Shown one piece after another: positions 5,542 through 31,000 of a DNA stretch of 64,000 nucleotides. The DNA comes from Candidatus Saccharimonadales bacterium. Lineage in GTDB: Bacteria > Patescibacteriota > Saccharimonadia > Saccharimonadales > UBA4665. The position numbers and the translations under genes are program-made. The notes under the pieces were generated by a model that worked only from the letters and a program-made list of their open reading frames with translations, had not been told where the DNA came from and made no database searches. The stretch covers positions 124,029 to 188,028 of the forward strand of contig DASZVS010000014.1 in the NCBI GenBank assembly GCA_035546975.1, written 5' to 3'. How positions within the stretch are numbered: the first letter of the stretch is position 1; every line of letters begins with the position of its first letter.

Positions 5542-6105
5542 TCAAGCTTCCGTGGCAGGAAAAACGTAGAGCTGCGATACACGGCCGGCGCGGGCCACGT
5601 CGTATACGTCTTCTGTATCGCCTGCGGCCAATTGTCCCGGCTCGCCGACAGGGGTCATAAAGCGCTCCAAGCCTTGCGGCGAGTTCGGATGTCCCCCAAC
5701 AATGGCAACCATGGCCGTTTGGCCGGCGCGGGACAGCAGCTCTCTTGCTACTTCCTCATGTGCTTCCAACCCTTCCCGCAAACGCAGCCAATAGTCAACA
5801 TCGTTACCAGTAAATACACCTTTCTCAGGATGAACGATTTGTTGGCCATGGATAACGGTCGCTATGCCTATTGCTATATTCCCGCGTCGTATAATGCTAG
5901 CCTCGACTGGGGTCTCATGATCACGCCACCCTTTTGCTATACGGGTGATATTTTTAGCGCCTTTTAGTACGGATTGATAGCGCTCGACTGTTCCCGGCTG
6001 CACAGCCTGAAGCCAGCCGCGCTCGCGATTAATGAGCGGCTTTAAGCTTCGGGCCTGGGAAAGGGCTCCGTATTCGTGCTCGCTGAATGGCTCAAGTTTT
6101 ATCAC
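5542..6105 (-). CDS. hypothetical protein, weak acetyltransferase-like pattern
   Basis: 187-aa ORF whose start overlaps the upstream ORF stop by 4 nt. The N-terminus IKLEPFSEHEY and a beta-strand/helix pattern resemble RimJ/RimL-type GNATs. The Q/RxxGxG/A motif is not clearly present. Confidence 0.5.
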   Translation of the reverse strand: MIKLEPFSEHEYGALSQARSLKPLINRERGWLQAVQPGTVERYQSVLKGAKNITRIAKGWRDHETPVEASIIRRGNIAIGIATVIHGQQIVHPEKGVFTGNDVDYWLRLREGLEAHEEVARELLSRAGQTAMVAIVGGHPNSPQGLERFMTPVGEPGQLAAGDTEDVYDVARAGRVSQLYVFPATEA

Positions 6106-7484
6106 AGGACACCTCTTTCGCCGGTCAAACCGGTCAATCTTAATATGGTTGCCTGCTCTTCGTGATGCGCTCTCTCCAGCGCTCTTTGCTGGCTGCGCTT
6201 CGTTCTCTTAGCCGGATTGGATAACCTTTTCTGTATAACGGCGTGTCGAATTTGCGCCTTATTCAGTACCCCGTAAAAGTCGTCAAGCATCTTTTCTGAC
6301 AGCGACGTAAAGCCCTTCTCGTCCATAATACGCCACACCTGCATCCAAGCCTGGTCGAGGCTTATTTCATTGCTCACCCCGTCTACTGTTACTTTTCCAT
6401 CAATTACGCTTGCCACCATTGAGTCAATGAATTCAGCCCTAACACTACCGGCTACGAGCGGATCCGAAACTTCTAAAAACTCCTGCATATCCGATGATAC
6501 TACCCAATGGCTAGCGTCGACGGTAGCTTGGCGTAAATTGTCCCCGTAGATAATCACCGACCGCACGAGCTGCTGCACTTCCTTGCCGAAATCTCCCTGC
6601 GCTTTCGTCGCCGCCTCACTTCCTTTAGCAAGACCTTCGCCGCTGTATGGCACGCCTAATTCTTTAAAAATACCAAAGAACGGTACGCGTGCGCCTTCAT
6701 AACGTGAAGCCAACGCTGCGACAAACGCCTGGACGGCTTCGGTTCCATAGATGACAGCCTGCGGTAATAAACTTTTATTTTCTTCAGCGAATTTAAATAA
6801 GGCTTCCGCCTCTTGGGCTGTATCAGCAAAGCCGAGCTGGTCAACCGGAGCGCCAGGCGCTTCAAAAGCGCCAACCTCTACGGTCGAGCGGCCAGAGCCA
6901 AATCTGGGAGTACGCCGAATACTGTCGGCATCCAAAGCCCCTTCGGCAAGGTAAATGCTCGTAAAAATATCTCTGATAGCAAGCTGTAAGCTATGCACAT
7001 TGCCCCTCTTGGAACGGTGAACCCCAGCTACGTCAGGCTCGGAAAGGTCCGGCCTTTTTCGCAGCTCCAGAACAGAGAGAGCAGGCTTGCGATCCCGAAC
7101 CCCCGTCGTAATAACGATAGGGTGCTGCTCGGTGTATGCATAATGATTGAGAGCATCAACGTCATTCATAAGGTCGAAAAATTCACCCCTGTCTCTACCA
7201 TCAAGCACCATCTGAGCCTCTAATGTTTCACTTGCCGGTGCCTCAGTTATGGACGCTAGTGCGGCATGACCAGCGGACCGCAAACTATCCAGCCTTTCTT
7301 TTGCGGCTGTTTCGCTGGCAGTAGTCCGCTCAAGGCGCACTTCTGCGGCCTGGAGCATAGACACCGCTCTTTCTCGCGTATCCGTAGCTCTCTCTACTCC
7401 AACTTGGGCTTCTTGAAGCGGCCCTGAAAACATTTCGACTAACTCTGCTGGCGACATTGAACTGCTCTGGATTTCTTCGGGCAT
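6102..7484 (-). CDS. hypothetical protein (460 aa, N-terminal coiled-coil-like region)
   Basis: Long ORF with a good SD (AGGAAGGTG) before the ATG and its own promoter-like element upstream. I recognise no family motif. Confidence 0.6.
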   Translation of the reverse strand: MPEEIQSSSMSPAELVEMFSGPLQEAQVGVERATDTRERAVSMLQAAEVRLERTTASETAAKERLDSLRSAGHAALASITEAPASETLEAQMVLDGRDRGEFFDLMNDVDALNHYAYTEQHPIVITTGVRDRKPALSVLELRKRPDLSEPDVAGVHRSKRGNVHSLQLAIRDIFTSIYLAEGALDADSIRRTPRFGSGRSTVEVGAFEAPGAPVDQLGFADTAQEAEALFKFAEENKSLLPQAVIYGTEAVQAFVAALASRYEGARVPFFGIFKELGVPYSGEGLAKGSEAATKAQGDFGKEVQQLVRSVIIYGDNLRQATVDASHWVVSSDMQEFLEVSDPLVAGSVRAEFIDSMVASVIDGKVTVDGVSNEISLDQAWMQVWRIMDEKGFTSLSEKMLDDFYGVLNKAQIRHAVIQKRLSNPAKRTKRSQQRALERAHHEEQATILRLTGLTGERGVL

Positions 7485-7510
7485 AACACCTTCCTGTCTT
7501 ACGCTCGTCT

Positions 7511-7538
7511 ACTATACCGCAATAACGTTAACTTGCAA
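7511..7538 (-). promoter_or_regulatory. sigma70-type promoter candidate for the 460-aa/187-aa gene pair
   Basis: On the minus strand: TTGCAA (7538-7533), 16-nt spacer, TATAGT (7516-7511), about 25 nt upstream of the ATG at 7484. Confidence 0.4.
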
Positions 7539-7603
7539 ACCGCGCAAGTATAGGGTTGCGTGAAGCCGCAAAAGCCTGCTTAGCGGCAGTCTTTCCTTTT
7601 ATT

Positions 7604-8221
7604 TTATTTGCCCTGCTCTTTAGGCGGGTTTTGAATGACAGCATCAACGAGGCCGTATTTCTTGGCTTCCGCCGCGGTCAGCCACTTGTCGCGTTCCATA
7701 TCTTCATGGATTTTCTTAGCGGTCTGGGCGGTATTTTTGGCCATAATTTCTTCGAGCAATTTCTTAATACGCAAAGATTCGCGCAGATCAATCTCCTGAT
7801 CGGTAACTTTGCCGCGGGTGCCGGATGATGGTTGGTGAATCATAACGGTGGCATTCGGCAACGCAAAGCGCTTGCCCTTCGTGCCAGAGCTCAAGAGGAA
7901 GGCGGCAGCTGAAGCTTGCACACCGATACCTACTGTCTGTATGTCATTAGTGACATATTGCATGGTGTCATAAATAGCCAGCGCATCGTAAACGCTGCCA
8001 CCGGGGCTATTAATGTAGAAAAAGATGTCTTTCTTGGGGTCTTCTGCCTGCAGGAACAGCAACTGGGCAACAATCAAGTTGGCCGTAGCTTCGTTCACGT
8101 CAGAGCCCAGAAAGATAATCCGGTCTTTTAAGAGGCGCGAATAAATGTCGTAGGCACGCTCATAGCGGCCTTCATTTTCGATAACGGTGGGGATTAAAAC
8201 TTGTGCTTTTGGACTGCTCAT
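7604..8221 (-). CDS. clpP: ATP-dependent Clp protease proteolytic subunit
   Basis: Motifs [31 protein letters not shown], catalytic Ser context [11 protein letters not shown], and IHQP. The ORF-track start at 8257 is a TTG lying inside the CIRCE/-35 element. The ATG at 8221 ([13 protein letters not shown]) gives a normal ClpP N-terminus. Confidence 0.92.
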
Positions 8222-8228
8222 ACCATCT

Positions 8229-8257
8229 ATTTTATAGGACGAATTAGCACTCGTCAA
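8229..8257 (-). promoter_or_regulatory. clpP promoter candidate overlapping CIRCE
   Basis: On the minus strand: TTGACG (8257-8252, inside the CIRCE spacer), 17-nt spacer, TAAAAT (8234-8229). The ATG follows 7 nt later. Confidence 0.5.
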
Positions 8258-8270
8258 CCCAGAGTGCTAA
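8244..8270. promoter_or_regulatory. CIRCE inverted repeat (HrcA operator consensus)
   Basis: Exact TTAGCACTC (8244-8252), N9, GAGTGCTAA (8262-8270). Both 9-nt arms match the consensus perfectly. Confidence 0.85.
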
Positions 8271-8594
8271 CTATTCTCCGCCTAGGGCCGCGTAATCGCT
8301 GTCGGGCAAGCCATACAGCTTGCCGAGAATCTGCCCAGCCTGTTCCTGGCGCAAGCCGCCAAAACCGCACTCGCTATAGTTATGGTCGCCGAGAAATATG
8401 CCTGTCAGGCCTTGCATCGCCATGTCGCTATACTCAACGTCCAACGGATAGGGAAAATCAATCAAATTAAGAACCAAGCGTTCGTGAAACGGCGCCCTTG
8501 CAGCCCCAAGCGCATTCAGAATTATTTTTCTGTCCGCTTCGGTCTCGATGATAATCTTATACGTCTCGGCAGCCGGGTCTTTCAGTCTCATCAT
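8271..8594 (-). CDS. hypothetical small acidic protein (107 aa)
   Basis: Strong SD (GGAGGTGA) 4-5 nt before the ATG, sitting between tig and clpP. No recognised motif. Confidence 0.6.
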   Translation of the reverse strand: MMRLKDPAAETYKIIIETEADRKIILNALGAARAPFHERLVLNLIDFPYPLDVEYSDMAMQGLTGIFLGDHNYSECGFGGLRQEQAGQILGKLYGLPDSDYAALGGE

Positions 8595-8604
8595 CTATCA
8601 CCTC

Positions 8605-9894
8605 CTACTTGGCGGGTGAAGCGTAACCGCGGAGCTTATCGATGGTTTTTTCGGTCATCATGCGGGCGTGGATATCGCGGCGGTTTTCATCCTTATCAAG
8701 TTCTGCTTGCATAGCAGGATCCGGATATTGGCCTTTGAGCAGCTGGATCCGAATTTCAAGTTCTTCCGGTGTAATCATGATGTTTTCTTCTTTGGCGATT
8801 TCACCCAGTATGAGGCCGACTTTAACGCGCAGCTCTGCCATCGGGCGTTTCTGTGCACGATGTTCTTCTTCGGTCACGCCTTCATCTTTGAGATGCTCTT
8901 GCCAAGTCTGGCCGCGATAAGCGAGATTTCGCTTTTCTTCGTCCTCCATGCGCGACACTTCCTCTTCAATGAGGCTCTCGGGCAAGGCAACAGTGCTTTT
9001 TTCGGCTATTTTCTCGAGGAGTTCATTGTCATATGCCTGCTGGGCTTGTTGCTGTTGCTCTGCAATAAGCTGTTTCTTTATATCTGCCTTTAACTCAGCC
9101 AGGCTTTTAAACGGGCCGGCGGTTTTAGCAAAGGCATCGTCCAGTTTCGGCTTTACCAGTTCCTGAACCTTCAATACGGTCACGTCAAAATTTACTTTGC
9201 GGTTTTGAAGGCTCGTAGCGCCATAGTCTTTGGGGAAAGTTAGTACAAAAGATTTCTTTTCACCGGGTTTTAAGCCTACTAGCTCTTCTTCGAAACCCGG
9301 GATAAAGGTTTTACTGCCTAGAACCAGCGGATATTCACTGCCGTCGGCGCCCTGGATAGCTTCTTTGGTCTTGGCATCCGTGCCCTTGAAATTAATAACT
9401 ACTTCATCATCCAGTTTAGCGGCGCGCTTTACCTCTTTTTTCTCCGCTGAACGGGCGCGTAAATTGTCGAGTACCTGGTCGACGTCTTTGGCAGTGATTT
9501 CTTGTTTTTTAGGGGCAAGCTTGATCGCCTTATAATCTGCGAGTTTCACTTCGCCGACAGTTTCCACGGTGGCAGAAAATTCAAGTGTCGAAAAAGGAAC
9601 GAATTTATCGATAGTGATATCCGGTTGGGCAACCGGGCGAAGGTTTTCACGCTCAACCGCGTCTACGTATAGGCGGTTTACCGCTTGTTCTAAAAACTCT
9701 GTCTGGAGCTGGGCTGCATCAACCTGTTTTTCAATGAGGTTATTAGGGGCCTTGCCTTCACGGAAGCCTTGGATCTTAACGTGCTGGCCGAGATGCTCCA
9801 ACACTTGCTGCTTGATGTTATCGAGCTCCGCCTGGGAGGCGCTAACGGTTACTTTGAGTTTTGTTGGTTCGAGCTGTTCCTTCTGTACTTGCAT
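8605..9894 (-). CDS. tig: trigger factor
   Basis: 429 aa with trigger-factor layout: N-terminal ribosome-binding region with GFREGKAP, a central FKBP-like part and a helical C-terminal domain. Confidence 0.9.
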   Translation of the reverse strand: MQVQKEQLEPTKLKVTVSASQAELDNIKQQVLEHLGQHVKIQGFREGKAPNNLIEKQVDAAQLQTEFLEQAVNRLYVDAVERENLRPVAQPDITIDKFVPFSTLEFSATVETVGEVKLADYKAIKLAPKKQEITAKDVDQVLDNLRARSAEKKEVKRAAKLDDEVVINFKGTDAKTKEAIQGADGSEYPLVLGSKTFIPGFEEELVGLKPGEKKSFVLTFPKDYGATSLQNRKVNFDVTVLKVQELVKPKLDDAFAKTAGPFKSLAELKADIKKQLIAEQQQQAQQAYDNELLEKIAEKSTVALPESLIEEEVSRMEDEEKRNLAYRGQTWQEHLKDEGVTEEEHRAQKRPMAELRVKVGLILGEIAKEENIMITPEELEIRIQLLKGQYPDPAMQAELDKDENRRDIHARMMTEKTIDKLRGYASPAK

Positions 9895-9902
9895 AGGGGG
9901 CT

Positions 9903-9911
9903 AGTGTAACA
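9903..9911 (-). promoter_or_regulatory. extended -10 element (TGTTACACT) 8 nt upstream of the tig ATG
   Basis: The reverse complement of 9903-9911 reads TGTTACACT. The tig ATG is at 9894-9892. Confidence 0.4.
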
Positions 9912-9928
9912 CTTCTTGGAAGTTTTTT

Positions 9929-10384
9929 CTAGCGTAAGAACGGCACCAGCAAAACGAGTGCCGCCGCAAACCAAGCTATTTCAACCACTGCGCCGATTGG
10001 CCGTTCAAACCACTGGATGCCGTGTGCCACTTTCGTATAAAGCCCCTGTTTCCATTGTTGGCCGCGGCGGGTTTTTATGTAGCCGCCGATAGAAAGCATA
10101 TCGGGCGAGGTTGCGATAAAAGCGCAAACCGAGGCCAGGAACCAATGTTCAGGACGGAATATAGCCAGTCCGGCAACCAGTAGCAAGCACAAACTCGCAT
10201 CAACGACTAGATAATTGCGAAACCACTTTGACTTTAACAGCTTGTCTGCAGACATATCACGCTTAAAATGCGGGATAACATCACAGATATAATGCGACGC
10301 CAGCGCGGCCGGCACCGCGATCAACGGTTCGCCGATAACCAAACCGATAATAGCACCGGTCAGCGCATGGTTCGTTGCCGTCAT
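9929..10384 (-). CDS. membrane protein, YdjM/DUF457-like putative metal-dependent hydrolase
   Basis: 151 aa with several hydrophobic helices. N-terminal NHALTG and SHYICDVIPH His/Asp pattern. ATGA overlap with the hisS stop. Confidence 0.45.
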   Translation of the reverse strand: MTATNHALTGAIIGLVIGEPLIAVPAALASHYICDVIPHFKRDMSADKLLKSKWFRNYLVVDASLCLLLVAGLAIFRPEHWFLASVCAFIATSPDMLSIGGYIKTRRGQQWKQGLYTKVAHGIQWFERPIGAVVEIAWFAAALVLLVPFLR

Positions 10385-25229: not shown

Positions 25230-27710
25230 TTATTCGGTAACGGTAGCATAGGTAAGCTCGCTATTTTTGCTTGCTACCTGAATGATATCACCTTTTGTGT
25301 ATTTTTCGTCTAACAAATCAAGGGCCAAATGGTCTTCGATCGTATCCTGGATGAGGCGGCGCAATGGCCGGACGCCATTCTTCGCATCGTAACCCTGCTC
25401 GAGCAAGTATTGCTTGGCGCTCGTACCCAGCTGTACGCTAATTCCTTTGCGCTGCAGGCGCTCCTTCAGTTCATTGATCTGCAAATCGATGATCTTGTAT
25501 ATATCTTTCTTGGTCAAGGCGTGAAAGACGATAGTTTTATCTATGCGGTTCAAGAGTTCCGGCCGAAGCAATTTCTTCAACTCGTCGTGAACCCGGTCTT
25601 TGTTGGCCTCATGCATAGCTTCGAGATCTTTGAGCTCATCGGCCTTGGTTGCACGGAAACCGAAACTGGCTTCTTTTTGCAATTTATCCGCGCCAACGTT
25701 CGAAGTCATGATGACAATCGTATTGGTAAAGTCTATGCGGCGGCCTTTGGCGTCAGTGATATAGCCGTCTTCCAGCATTTGCAGGAGCATGTTAAATACA
25801 TCCGGGTGGGCCTTTTCGATTTCGTCAAAGAGGACTAGGCTGTAAGGCTGGCGGCGAATTTTATCCGTCAACTGGCCACCTTCGTCATAGCCGACATATC
25901 CGGCCGGAGCGCCCACTAGGCGGGAAACATTGTGATGTTCGCCGAATTCCGACATATCTATCTTAACGAGGGCATTCTCGCTGCCAAAGAATTCACGCGC
26001 TAATACGCGGGCCAACTCGGTCTTGCCTACACCGGTAGGGCCAAGGAAAATGAATGACCCGATGGGGCGCTTCTCGGTACCGACGCCGCTGCGGTTACGC
26101 CTGATAGCGCGGGCCACGGCACTCACTGCTTCTTTCTGGCCGATGATATATTTGCTCAGTTCCTTTTCAAGGTTCAAGAGATACTTTGCTTCGCTGCGGA
26201 TAACGTTCTTCACCGGCACACCGGTCATGCGCGAAACAACATCGGCTACATCTTCGCTGGTTACCGTAAGCTGTTTGGTATGCTTGCCGTTGGCACGTTC
26301 AGCCGCAAGCTTTTCATTAATCTGCGAGGCACGGGTCTTAGCACGGGCAGCGCGCTCGTAGTCCTCGGCGTCCACTGCTTCTTCGATTTGCGTATTAACC
26401 AGTTTGAGCTCTTTCTGCAGCTTCCGGACTTCCGGGCTAGTCTTGCCTTTATCTACTCGCAAATGCGCCGCAGTTTCGTCAATCAAATCAATAGCTTTGT
26501 CCGGCATATAGCGGTCATTTATGTATCGTCTGGCAAGATTAACGGCGTCCTCCAGAACTTCGTCGCTCAGTTTAACGCCGTGGAACTGCTCGTAGTGGCC
26601 GCGCAAGCCTTTCAGAATAGCGAGCGTTTCGCCAGGCGTCGTTTCAGGGACCTGGATAGGCTGGAAGCGGCGCTCCAGGGCGGCGTCTTTTTCGATATGC
26701 TTGGTGTACTCTACCGTAGTAGTAGCCCCGATAACTTGGATTTTGCCGCGGGCCAGTGCCGGCTTCAAGATATTACCGGCATCCATAGCGCCCTCAGCGG
26801 CGCCGGCGCCTACAATCAGATGCAACTCATCGATGAAGACTATAGTCTGGTTGTCTTTCTCCAGTTCTGCCATAACCTTTTTCAGGCGCTCTTCAAATTC
26901 GCCCCGGTACTTTGTGCCGGCAATCATACCGGCTAAGTCCAACATAACGATCCTTTTATCGATCAAACTATCAGGCACATCCTCGGCAATAATACGCTGG
27001 GCCAGGCCTTCTACAATAGCGGTTTTACCAACGCCAGGCTCGCCTATTAATACGGGGTTATTCTTTGTCCGCCGGTTCAAGATGGTAATAACGCGGCGTA
27101 TCTGGTTATCCCGGCCTACCACCGGGTCAAGCTTGCCCTCACGGGCTTGTGCCGTCAGATCTGTACCGAAGAAATCAAGAGCTGTCTTTTTAGCCTTCTT
27201 GCCGCTGCGACGGCTGCGGGCCGTTCCGGTATCATTTTCTTCGTATTGTTGCCGGTTGAAGAATTGCTCGAGCTCATTCATAAGCGTTTCGACATCAATA
27301 TTCATATCGCGAAGCAAAATCGTAGCCCGGGCGTTTTTCTGGCTGAGAATGCTATAAAGGATATGCTCCGTACCGCAATACTCTTGCGAGTAATCCTGGG
27401 CTACGTCATATGCCATCTTGAGTGTTAGCTTGGCAGTTTCGCTTAAACCTTTGGCGCCAACATTTATAACGAGCGTCTTGGGCGTCATATTGAGCGCCAT
27501 GCGCGCCCGATCAAGCGTAACGCCAGCGCCCTCAAGCACTTTAGCGCCCATGCTGCCATCTTGCGCCAACACGCCAAGCAAAAGATGCTCGGTGCCAACG
27601 TAAGCACTGCCAAAATTACGAGCAATAGCGTCTGCATGCTTCAAGCTCTGCAGGGCATTGTTCGTTAAATGATTTAAAAATTCTTGGAAGTCGGGAGAAT
27701 TCGGCATCAT
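25230..27710 (-). CDS. clpC: ATP-dependent Clp protease ATP-binding subunit ClpC
   Basis: 826 aa. Two Clp_N repeats, two AAA+ modules ([10 protein letters not shown] and [11 protein letters not shown]) and a UVR-like linker. Confidence 0.95.
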
Positions 27711-27871: not shown

Positions 27872-27899
27872 ATTGTAGCACTTAGCACTCTCACGTCAA
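27872..27899 (-). promoter_or_regulatory. clpC promoter candidate overlapping CIRCE
   Basis: On the minus strand: TTGACG (27899-27894, inside the CIRCE spacer), 16-nt spacer counted to TACAAT, and extended -10 TGCTACAAT (27880-27872). It lies about 160 nt upstream of the clpC ATG. Confidence 0.5.
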
Positions 27900-27908
27900 G
27901 AGTGCTAA
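27882..27908. promoter_or_regulatory. CIRCE inverted repeat (HrcA operator consensus)
   Basis: Exact TTAGCACTC (27882-27890), N9, GAGTGCTAA (27900-27908). Confidence 0.85.
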
Positions 27909-28010
27909 TTCAGCCTGTTGTTTGGGTTGGTTGGCAGGGCTGGATTGCCATTTATCTCCAAGACTCCGAGCAAGCCGTAGTCGTCGCTACGGCGCAGCTG
28001 GATTGAAGGA

Positions 28011-28036: not shown

Positions 28037-28093
28037 GACAGTCCAAGCAATGGGTTGCACGTAGTATTCTTGGCGTGAGTCAAGAGTGCTAAT

Positions 28094-31000
28094 TCAGCTC
28101 TTGTCTTCGGGGTTTTTCGTCTCAGGCGAATAGACCGTACCGGGGCTTGCAGGATGATGGCCCGGAGCTTCGGACGGGGCTGACTGCTGCTCGGAAGAGA
28201 CAATGCGTGACGGCTCAACGGGACGCACGGTAGCAAGGCGGCTATTCCACGGCCGATAGATCAGCAGAGCGCCGCCCAGCAATGCCAGAACTGGTATGAC
28301 AAGCAAGAACGGGTTAACGGCGGCATGCGCCATCGACAGTTTAATATTTTGTAGATCATTACGGTGGGAGGAATTTGCGTCTTTTACATGAATAGTGCGG
28401 GATGTAACTTGGCCGTTGTACTGGACTGAGACGTCGTGCTTGCCCACGGGCACGTTAGTGAAGTAAGCAATGCCTTGCTGGTTGGTCTGCACCGTTTGGT
28501 TGTACAACGTAACTTGGGCGTGATAAGCCGGTCTATGGTGCTTGTCGAAAACAGTAATGGCTACGCGCGGCCTAACCGGCTGCTGGTGACTGCCGCTGCC
28601 AGAGTTGCTTCCACCATTACTACCACTCCCCGAGCCGGCTCCGCCCTGGCTCGAGCCGCCGCCCGAAGAAGAGGAGGAAGAGCTCACATAAGCAGACAGC
28701 GTGCAAGTCTGCCAAAGCTGTCCGGTTTTCCAGCTTGCAGGTAAGTCTGCAAGGTTATTACTACTGGGCGATTGCGAACAACTTCCAGAAGCGGCGTCGC
28801 GGAATTTAACTTTTCCGCCTGTGCCAAGTAAAGCAATCCAATACGTCGCACCCTTTGTAACGTTCGGTTTAGAGCTGAGCGTAATTGCATTCCATGCTGC
28901 AGGCTTAGGCGAATTAATGCTGCCGCTGGCCAATAAAGAACCTGGCTTACCGTTGCTGTCAGAGTAGAGCCCTGCCGTAACTGTGGTGGCGGCTGAACCG
29001 CTGTCCAGATAAAGGCTTATTGTACCGGCTTGGCCAGAGGCCACAGCGGTGTATTTAAATGCTTCCGGGCTGCCTGCTGCATCATTATCCTCTGCCGCCT
29101 GGACGCCATTAGTTCCGAGCAGCAAGTCGTTGCCGCCGCCATTATTACCCGAACCACCGCCTGAGGTGCTGGCCGCCGGCGTCGTTACGCTCACCGTTGC
29201 CGTCTTGTTACTGGCATTACCGGCCTTATCGACTGCACTGACTTGATAGGTATAGGTTGTTGACGGCTGGGCTGATGTGTCAGTGTATGCAGTGGCAGTT
29301 TGCGGAGATTGATTAAGCTGCTGGCCATTCCGATAAACGATATATCCGGCCAAGCCCGAGCCCCCCTTATCAGTTGAGTCGCCCCAACTAAGGTTGACTT
29401 GCGTGGAGCTATTGGCCGTGGCTTTCAGGCCGCCCGGTACTGTCGGAGCGGTTGTATCCTGCGGCGCCGGCGTCGTCGCGCTGGCAGCGGTTGATTGCGA
29501 AGATTTGTTGCCGGCACCATCGACGGCCTCTATCTTATAGCTGTACGTTGTATTTGCGCTAGCCGTGTCATCGCCGTATGTCGTGGTTGTAACCAGGCTT
29601 GAATTTATCTTGGTGCCATTTCGGTAAACGTTATAGCCTGCCAAACCCGAGCCGCCGGCATCCGTACTGGCATTCCAGCTAAGGTTGACTTGCGTGGAGC
29701 TTGCCGCGGTCGCCGAGATACCCGAAGGAGTACTTGGCGGCGTCGTGTCAGGAGTGCCTGTGCCTCCCCCGTTTGAGCCAGCGCAGCCGTTAGTGCCGTC
29801 GATACAGACTGGCTGCAAGTTATCGTCCCAAACATTGCCGCTCCAAGTTGTAGCTTTGCTGAAATAATACTCTGATATGCCATAGTTGCCTGACTTAGGG
29901 TAATAACCGTTGGCATCGGCTCCGCCCTGACAGGTCGTATTGCCGCCATTCGAGTGATAGACCGGAGCTGTTAAGCAGCGTGCCAGATGATTATTGGTGA
30001 TGCTCGTGCTACTGGAGCCCGCGCTTGTGCCATTGCCGCATGGATAGAACGTGAAGCCGCCGCCCGCTACCAGGCTATTTGATACGGTGACATGGTTGGA
30101 GCAAGTGCCGCCAGAGCCGCCATTGACGTTAGCGAAAACGACAGCCGTCTGCCCTACCGGGTTGAAGAATGTTGAGTGGTCCATATTCAATGTACTGTCA
30201 CTCATATATATGTTTTCTACATGATCCGTAGAAATAGCTATCTTAGCGATACCGTACGTATTGGTTACCGTAGCATTACCGACATTATATAAGTTGGAGT
30301 CACAACCATGCAGATAGGAACCGCTGATCTGGACCGTGCCCGAGCTCGTATTACGGATGTCATGCTCACAGGTGATACCAGGCGCGGTCAGTAATTCAAC
30401 GTTCTTGATGACCGTTCCGGTGACGCCTTCATTGATCCGGATTTCTGAATTACCGCAGGTGTTAGTGGCACCACAGCTGCCCGAATTCAAGGTAACGCGC
30501 GTATTTTCGACCGTGACATTATTAGCATCAATCTCTATTGAGCCAGCCACATCCTTGGCATTTATGACCTGTCCTGCCGTTGAGGCCGTGATAGAGCCCG
30601 ACGCGGTCAAAGCCGTGCCAGCCGGGACACCGGTGTTGGTAGGATCAGGATAGCCGCAGGCACTAGGCTTGGAGAAGCAATTCTTAGCTTGGGTACCACC
30701 GGTCGTACCACCGCTACCAGCGCTCGGCGTCGTCACGGATGCTGCCGCAGAATTGGCCGAGACGTTCCCGGCACCGTCGACGGCCTGAATAATATAACTG
30801 TAACTCGTATTGGCAACGGCATTGGTATCTGTGTAGCTAGTGCCGGCTACCTGGGCTATAACTGTTCCGCCGCGTAGGACGTTGTACTTAGCCACACCGG
30901 TAGCATTCGTGCCGCTATCTGTGGAAGCGCTCCAACTGAGATTGACGGTCGTGGCATTGCTAGCCGTGGCTTTAACGTTCGTAGGCGCACTTGGCGGCGT

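Follow-up and report, generated by a model that had tools for sequence, protein, structure and literature searches.

The window analysed here, a 64-kb stretch of DNA (64,000 nucleotides), carries on its minus strand a clpP gene encoding 205 aa (7604..8221; Pfam PF00574, E 1.8e-76) that lies downstream of tig, encoding trigger factor (8605..9894, minus strand; Pfam Trigger_N, FKBP_C and Trigger_C). Between tig and clpP on the same strand is a 107-aa open reading frame without a Pfam match, ORF107 (8271..8594), the TAG stop codon of which abuts an inverted repeat of 27 bp, TTAGCACTCGTCAACCCAGAGTGCTAA at 8244-8270. A motif scan of the 64-kb window matched this repeat to the consensus of the CIRCE operator, the HrcA-type inverted repeat TTAGCACTC-N9-GAGTGCTAA, with 0 mismatches and 18/18 arm positions, in agreement with the perfect CIRCE reported in a first-pass annotation of this DNA. 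On the minus strand the 5′ arm occupies 8270-8262, the 9-nt spacer 8261-8253 and the 3′ arm 8252-8244. CIRCE-like sites with three or fewer mismatches occur twice in the window against an expectation of 0.03 obtained from dinucleotide-preserving shuffles of the window, with none of 100 shuffles giving two such sites.

Reading along the clpP strand the order is TTAGCACTC TGGGTTGAC GAGTGCTAA TTCGTCCTA TAAAAT AGATGGT ATG, in which a -35 hexamer TTGACG (8257-8252) is formed by spacer positions 5-9 together with the first G of the 3′ arm, and a -10 hexamer TAAAAT (8234-8229) follows 17 nt past the -35 and 7 nt before the ATG. The pair TTGACG-17-TAAAAT agrees with 10/12 consensus positions and was the best sigma-70-like site found in 7500-10100 by a promoter scan, which returned the same pair at the same spacing to the ATG that had been proposed as the clpP promoter from inspection. 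The operator overlaps the -35 of this promoter, a position that would let binding block transcription.

The clpP start codon was placed at the ATG at 8221-8219, an assignment that is credible because the N-termini of ClpP in relatives start 3-12 residues ahead of the conserved LIPTVIE. In the longer frame starting at TTG-8257 the operator itself would be translated. The 7 nt before the ATG (AGATGGT) hold no Shine-Dalgarno sequence; together with the end of the -10 only 7 nt from the start codon, this makes a leaderless clpP mRNA probable. The near-leaderless geometry pointed out at first pass recurs in many relatives, in which the -10 lies 6-9 nt from the ATG without a Shine-Dalgarno sequence (L002, L003, L005, L162, L181, L281, L411, L455 and L463), while others have instead a leader of 20-30 nt with AGGAG (21-33 nt in L001, L004, L124 and L173, where the sequences read show ribosome sites of the AGGAG or GAGGA type). 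The clpP of the window was not found in any public RNA run searched, and bovine gut metatranscriptomes yielded just two short pieces, both inside the clpP coding sequence of a relative and neither containing a 5′ end.

The order hisS-tig-CIRCE-clpP-rpoB is kept in relatives of the window. L001, L005, L280 and L281 lack ORF107: in these loci tig stops immediately ahead of the CIRCE, and ORF107 is therefore an insertion at the tig/clpP junction. A scan of the minus strand between 8221 and 8605 found no terminator-like site. On the other side of clpP two overlapping open reading frames without a Pfam match (460 aa and 187 aa) lie at 5542-7484 of the window between clpP and rpoB; the gap between these two genes is only about 250-290 bp in L001, L124 and L283 and longer in other relatives.

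The other CIRCE of the window is also perfect (18/18 arm positions) and lies at 27882..27908 on the minus strand in the promoter of a gene for a ClpC-like AAA+ unfoldase of 826 aa (25230..27710, minus strand; Pfam Clp_N twice, AAA, AAA_lid_9, UVR, AAA_2 and ClpB_D2-small), which is the likely partner of ClpP. The clpC strand reads TTAGCACTC-TTGACGTGA-GAGTGCTAA-GTGC-TACAAT, with the -35 (27899-27894) at the first positions of the spacer TTGACGTGA and a TG-extended -10, TACAAT (27877-27872), past the operator after GTGC. The clpC leader is approximately 160 nt. A matching cassette stands ahead of clpC in L110, L143, L114, L126, L182 and others. Across the window and its relatives the gene upstream of clpC is either a conserved 413-aa open reading frame or hrcA, and no ctsR-mcsA-mcsB was found upstream of clpC in any of them. 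In one Saccharimonadales clade (L182:1637-5607 and L200-L204) hrcA is directly upstream of clpC, and each of the two has a CIRCE-promoter cassette to itself. Neither the window nor its closest relatives have hrcA at this position. No hrcA, groES/EL or dnaK is present within the 64-kb window. Further upstream of clpC, GTCAAGAGTGCTAATTCAGC at 28079-28098 is an exact 20-nt copy of the 3′ arm of the clpC operator with its flank (27895-27914), which overlaps the end of a gene encoding 1835 aa and is without the matching 5′ arm; it may be the footprint of a rearrangement upstream of clpC.

The relatives of the ClpP and ClpC of the window are uncultured Saccharibacteria/Saccharimonadales known as metagenome-assembled genomes, with best identities of 85-87%, and the window sequence itself is complete in two soil metagenome runs; the organism belongs to the uncultured Saccharibacteria of soil. 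An exact look-up of the ClpP of the window among public assemblies gave no record. Conservation of the operator was followed in two retrievals of clpP loci by ClpP similarity, one from genome contigs and one from metagenome contigs, both of which are unbiased for the motif. Among the genome contigs the five closest loci (72-87% ClpP identity) all have a CIRCE with 0-1 mismatch immediately 5′ of clpP, compared with 0/75 of the other clpP loci retrieved, which were Firmicutes mostly together with two more distant Saccharibacteria and one Paceibacterota. Among the metagenome contigs a CIRCE was present at 6/7 of the best loci (64-85% identity) and at 0/73 of the others, such that in the pooled similarity retrievals the element stands at 11/12 of the closest clpP loci and at none of about 148 others. 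The absences extend to Saccharibacteria-like clpP genes of 57-65% identity (L026, L072 and L285), for which no CIRCE was found within 400 nt upstream with up to six mismatches allowed, and because these more distant genes are without the element the link between clpP and HrcA is clade-specific rather than phylum-wide.

Pattern scans contributed 13 further clpP loci, and when 24 clpP upstream regions were aligned on the element the arms were near-invariant with TTGAC inside the spacer, while the flanks were unalignable. The palindrome that had been predicted to persist upstream of clpP in related genomes is therefore kept at 24 loci where the sequence around it is not, and the suggestion that a bound repressor would occlude the -35 holds for each of them, the hexamer being embedded in the operator at all 24. 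The -10 lies 15-19 nt past the -35 in these promoters, mostly 17-18 nt. The register of the -35 varies, spacer positions 1-5 being the commoner form, while positions 5-9 are used in the window, in its close relatives L005, L280, L281 and L283, and in L286, L376, L411, L455, L458 and L463; in L284 the -35 is at spacer positions 3-7.

The protein encoded after many such cassettes is a short HrcA of 225-250 aa, which has the PF03444 winged helix and a match to PF01628 that covers profile positions 105-215 only, the distal half. A search of genome contigs with one short HrcA gave 438 relatives, the best 80 of which are nearly all labelled Saccharibacteria/Saccharimonadales with a few other bin labels, and the short HrcA is widespread in the order. 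It is encoded at L200:3001-3717 and at about 110 other loci, such as L122:6845-7552 and L107:4580-5254. Among the best 80 of the 438 relatives, 79 loci had enough upstream sequence and all 79 have a CIRCE with three or fewer mismatches no more than 200 nt 5′ of hrcA, the signature of autoregulation. At 68 of the 79 there are two or fewer mismatches, with TTGAC at the spacer start in 61/68. Assembly JAQBRQ01 holds both an hrcA (L269) and a CIRCE-clpP locus (L124), the ClpP of which is 87% identical to that of the window. In the source metagenome (two runs) there are several hrcA-like fragments with approximately 80% identity to the hrcA of a relative, at depths of 3-23 compared with 17.8 and 12 for the window contig, and these are not assignable to the organism of the window.

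When aligned with the HrcA of Streptococcus and Lachnospira (344-357 aa), the HrcA of the Candidate Phyla Radiation (CPR) shows one clean internal gap of approximately 100 residues, which we take to be the inserted dimerising domain of 1STZ-type HrcA. The protein of this lineage is without the full three-domain 1STZ-type architecture (approximately 340 aa), and its sequence match to the Thermotoga maritima HrcA 1STZ covers the winged helix only (1STZ residues 16-105). An AlphaFold model (pLDDT 89.4) compared with 1STZ gave a TM-score of 0.80 normalised to the query and 0.60 normalised to the target, and because of this match the short HrcA is predicted to keep the winged helix and a GAF-like core.

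The wider regulon was examined by orienting CPR sites according to the embedded TTGAC, removing duplicates and identifying the first downstream open reading frame. The cassette precedes hrcA at 87 loci, dnaK at 76, clpC/clpB-type genes at 34, clpP at 13, hsp20 at six and dnaJ at one, counts which come partly from loci fetched with the CIRCE pattern and which therefore show which genes carry the cassette rather than the fraction of genomes that have it. A few small open reading frames of no known function are also preceded by it. TTGAC lies inside the spacer at 233/233 oriented CPR sites, a set that was partly selected by pattern. No groES/GroEL from Saccharibacteria was among the first 279 loci, and a second pattern scan found the cassette in the register of the window ahead of Saccharibacteria groES at eight loci, including Nanosynbacter sp. 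TM7-075, as well as giving more clpC and clpP loci. The expectation at first pass that the classical members would also carry the element was tested in relatives and holds for hrcA, dnaK, dnaJ and groES. Saccharibacteria dnaK promoters often have two CIRCE in tandem (L090, L101, L137, L157, L174, L191 and L194), one with the -35 and the second right after the -10, an arrangement that would imply tighter repression than at the clp genes.

Taken with the second perfect site at clpC, the CIRCE kept ahead of clpP in relatives, the same cassette on chaperone genes and the abundance of hrcA homologues in the order, these results favour the proposal of the first-pass annotation that the Clp protease belongs to the HrcA regulon, and in this lineage Clp is very probably under the control of the chaperone repressor. 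For the cultured strain TM7x of the Saccharibacteria, a transcriptome preprint reports a joint rise of clpB and clpP during stable symbiosis (bioRxiv 10.1101/2022.03.25.485537), which as weak evidence is compatible with co-regulation. The literature searched contained no paper linking HrcA or CIRCE with Saccharibacteria or Patescibacteria.

The reading preferred here, to which we give a probability of about 85%, is that the short HrcA uses the 27-bp palindrome as a functional operator of the CIRCE type, which is fused to a sigma-70-type clpP promoter. If the first base of the ATG is the transcription start, the operator would span about -49 to -23 with the -35 included, such that an HrcA dimer on both arms would cover the -35 together with most of the spacer between the promoter hexamers and exclude RNA polymerase. 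Polymerase reading through from tig could likewise be stopped by bound HrcA, since there is no terminator between clpP and the two genes ahead of it, tig and ORF107. During proteotoxic or heat stress HrcA activity would be lost and clpP transcribed as a leaderless mRNA, with clpC released along with it through the second cassette and, judging from the relatives, dnaK, dnaJ, hsp20, groES and hrcA as well. The binding of HrcA, repression, relief by stress, the clpP transcription start and the presence of hrcA in this particular genome are in this scheme inferred.

A different account of the locus would have clpP mainly co-transcribed with tig and ORF107, the palindrome acting for the most part to block polymerase or, in the RNA, to form a hairpin that affects stability or read-through, and the TTGACG/TAAAAT pair being minor or inactive. 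The lack of a terminator-like site between tig, ORF107 and clpP and the conserved order of tig, CIRCE and protease gene fit this account, as does Mycoplasma pneumoniae, in which the tig promoter drives lon and a CIRCE lies immediately 5′ of lon (PMC7737663). However, a consensus-like -35 and -10 at 17 ± 1 nt are kept in all 24 clpP sites while spacer and flanks drift, the cassette also serves genes without a co-directional neighbour upstream, and the missing Shine-Dalgarno sequence is more in keeping with a leaderless mRNA than with an internal cistron. With regard to a hairpin, the arms can pair as an 11-pair hairpin, but the fold is no stabler than shuffles (z -0.81) and there is no U-tract after it. 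Co-transcription as the main source of clpP mRNA is thus unlikely. A reading of the palindrome as a terminator or hairpin in its own right, for which the terminator scan likewise made no call, was set aside as a minor rival only.

Two further explanations dispense with HrcA as the present regulator of the site. If hrcA had been lost, or the short HrcA did not bind, the palindrome could be a relic kept just for the -35 of a constitutive clpP promoter, and the location of the -35 inside the element and the failure to find hrcA in the 64-kb window would both be explained. This is very improbable as the -35 accounts for only 6/27 bases, yet 18/18 arm positions are perfect at two loci of the window, the arms are conserved across relatives at 64-87% ClpP identity, and every sampled Saccharimonadales hrcA locus has its own CIRCE. 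More improbable still is that a non-HrcA regulator, for example one like CtsR or ClgR, binds a palindrome that happens to share the CIRCE consensus, even though clp genes in Firmicutes and Actinobacteria are under CtsR or ClgR and the canonical HrcA architecture is incomplete in this lineage. The sequence is the exact HrcA consensus, the element also precedes hrcA, dnaK and groES in the lineage as expected of an autoregulating HrcA, and the winged helix aligns well with 1STZ residues 16-105. Moreover, no CtsR-box-like site lies near either clp promoter: the CtsR operator (A/G)GTCAAA-NAN-(A/G)GTCAAA has two matches with three mismatches in the window compared with 4.45 expected by chance, neither of them at a clp promoter, and CtsR control was rejected at the operator level on the missing heptad box.

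A broader possibility extends the HrcA reading of the clpP operator beyond this locus. Tentatively, and with somewhat less than even odds, the minimal HrcA acting via a cassette with the -35 in the CIRCE loop may on its own act as master regulator of protein quality control in the cytosol of Saccharibacteria and probably of much of the Patescibacteria, co-regulating folding (GroES/EL, DnaK/J and Hsp20) with degradation (ClpC-ClpP), a task that other Gram-positive-type bacteria divide between HrcA and CtsR or ClgR. If this were true the short repressor would have to dimerise and sense stress otherwise than in the GroEL-titration model, which was worked out for full-length HrcA. Apart from this broader possibility, the findings add a second independent case, after the Mollicutes, of genome reduction collapsing the control of proteostasis onto HrcA. 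Most Saccharibacteria and other Patescibacteria have not been cultured, they are ultrasmall, and gene regulation in them is almost unstudied. A cassette defined by sequence offers a regulon map in which chaperones and the ClpCP protease fall under one repressor. It also yields a set of well-defined promoters and, as a prediction, a switch induced by stress, both of potential use in those few strains that are open to genetics.

The textbook targets of HrcA and CIRCE are groESL and hrcA-grpE-dnaK(-dnaJ), while clp genes are controlled by CtsR in Firmicutes and by ClgR in Actinobacteria; ClgR is an activator and HrcA a repressor. In Bacillus subtilis CIRCE coincides with the start site or lies downstream of it. 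Operator and repressor family here both belong to the classical class I heat-shock system and do not amount to a new mechanism. In common with the class I regulon of B. subtilis there is an identical operator consensus (18/18) and an HrcA with a winged helix and a C-terminal domain, with hrcA apparently autoregulated and dnaK and groES carrying the element in the lineage. What differs from the classical system is that the targets are clpP and clpC, which in Bacillus are CtsR targets, that the operator overlaps the -35, that HrcA is approximately 100 aa shorter, and that the clpP message is probably leaderless. The findings are therefore a solid but modest extension of the well-known HrcA system, with the short HrcA as the most intriguing point. 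Control by CtsR or ClgR resembles the present case in having the same clpP and clpC targets and in making Clp proteolysis responsive to stress; compared with CtsR the operator is a different one, with no CtsR heptad repeat at either clp promoter.

The nearest published precedent found is M. pneumoniae, in which HrcA controls dnaK, dnaJ, clpB, groESL, lon, pepA and pip (PMC7737663). The likeness lies in a genome-reduced bacterium with one heat-shock repressor for chaperones and an ATP-dependent protease, and in the order of tig, CIRCE and protease gene. The protease in M. pneumoniae is Lon, with ClpP not among the HrcA-regulated components listed (PMC7737663), whereas here a ClpP peptidase and a ClpC unfoldase each have their own operator-promoter cassette and the lineage is Patescibacteria. 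In delta-proteobacteria CIRCE is confined to groESL, hrcA-grpE-dnaKJ and rpoH, with clpP having sigma-32 promoters (PMC545781).

A layout in the same register as the clpP site of the window, TTAGCACTC-NNNN-TTGAC-GAGTGCTAA followed after approximately 17 nt by a TATAAC-like -10, was found mostly in Lachnospiraceae and other Firmicutes ahead of hsp20 (42 loci) and clpB (19 loci), with phylum and target genes differing from those of the window. The Lachnospiraceae-type HrcA is full length, with 357 aa in L362. The idea that only the candidate phyla place the -35 in the loop is ruled out by these hsp20 and clpB cassettes, which occur among L361-L476 (for example L363, L364, L377, L361 and L395) and suggest that both genes are part of the HrcA regulon of Lachnospiraceae and related Firmicutes.
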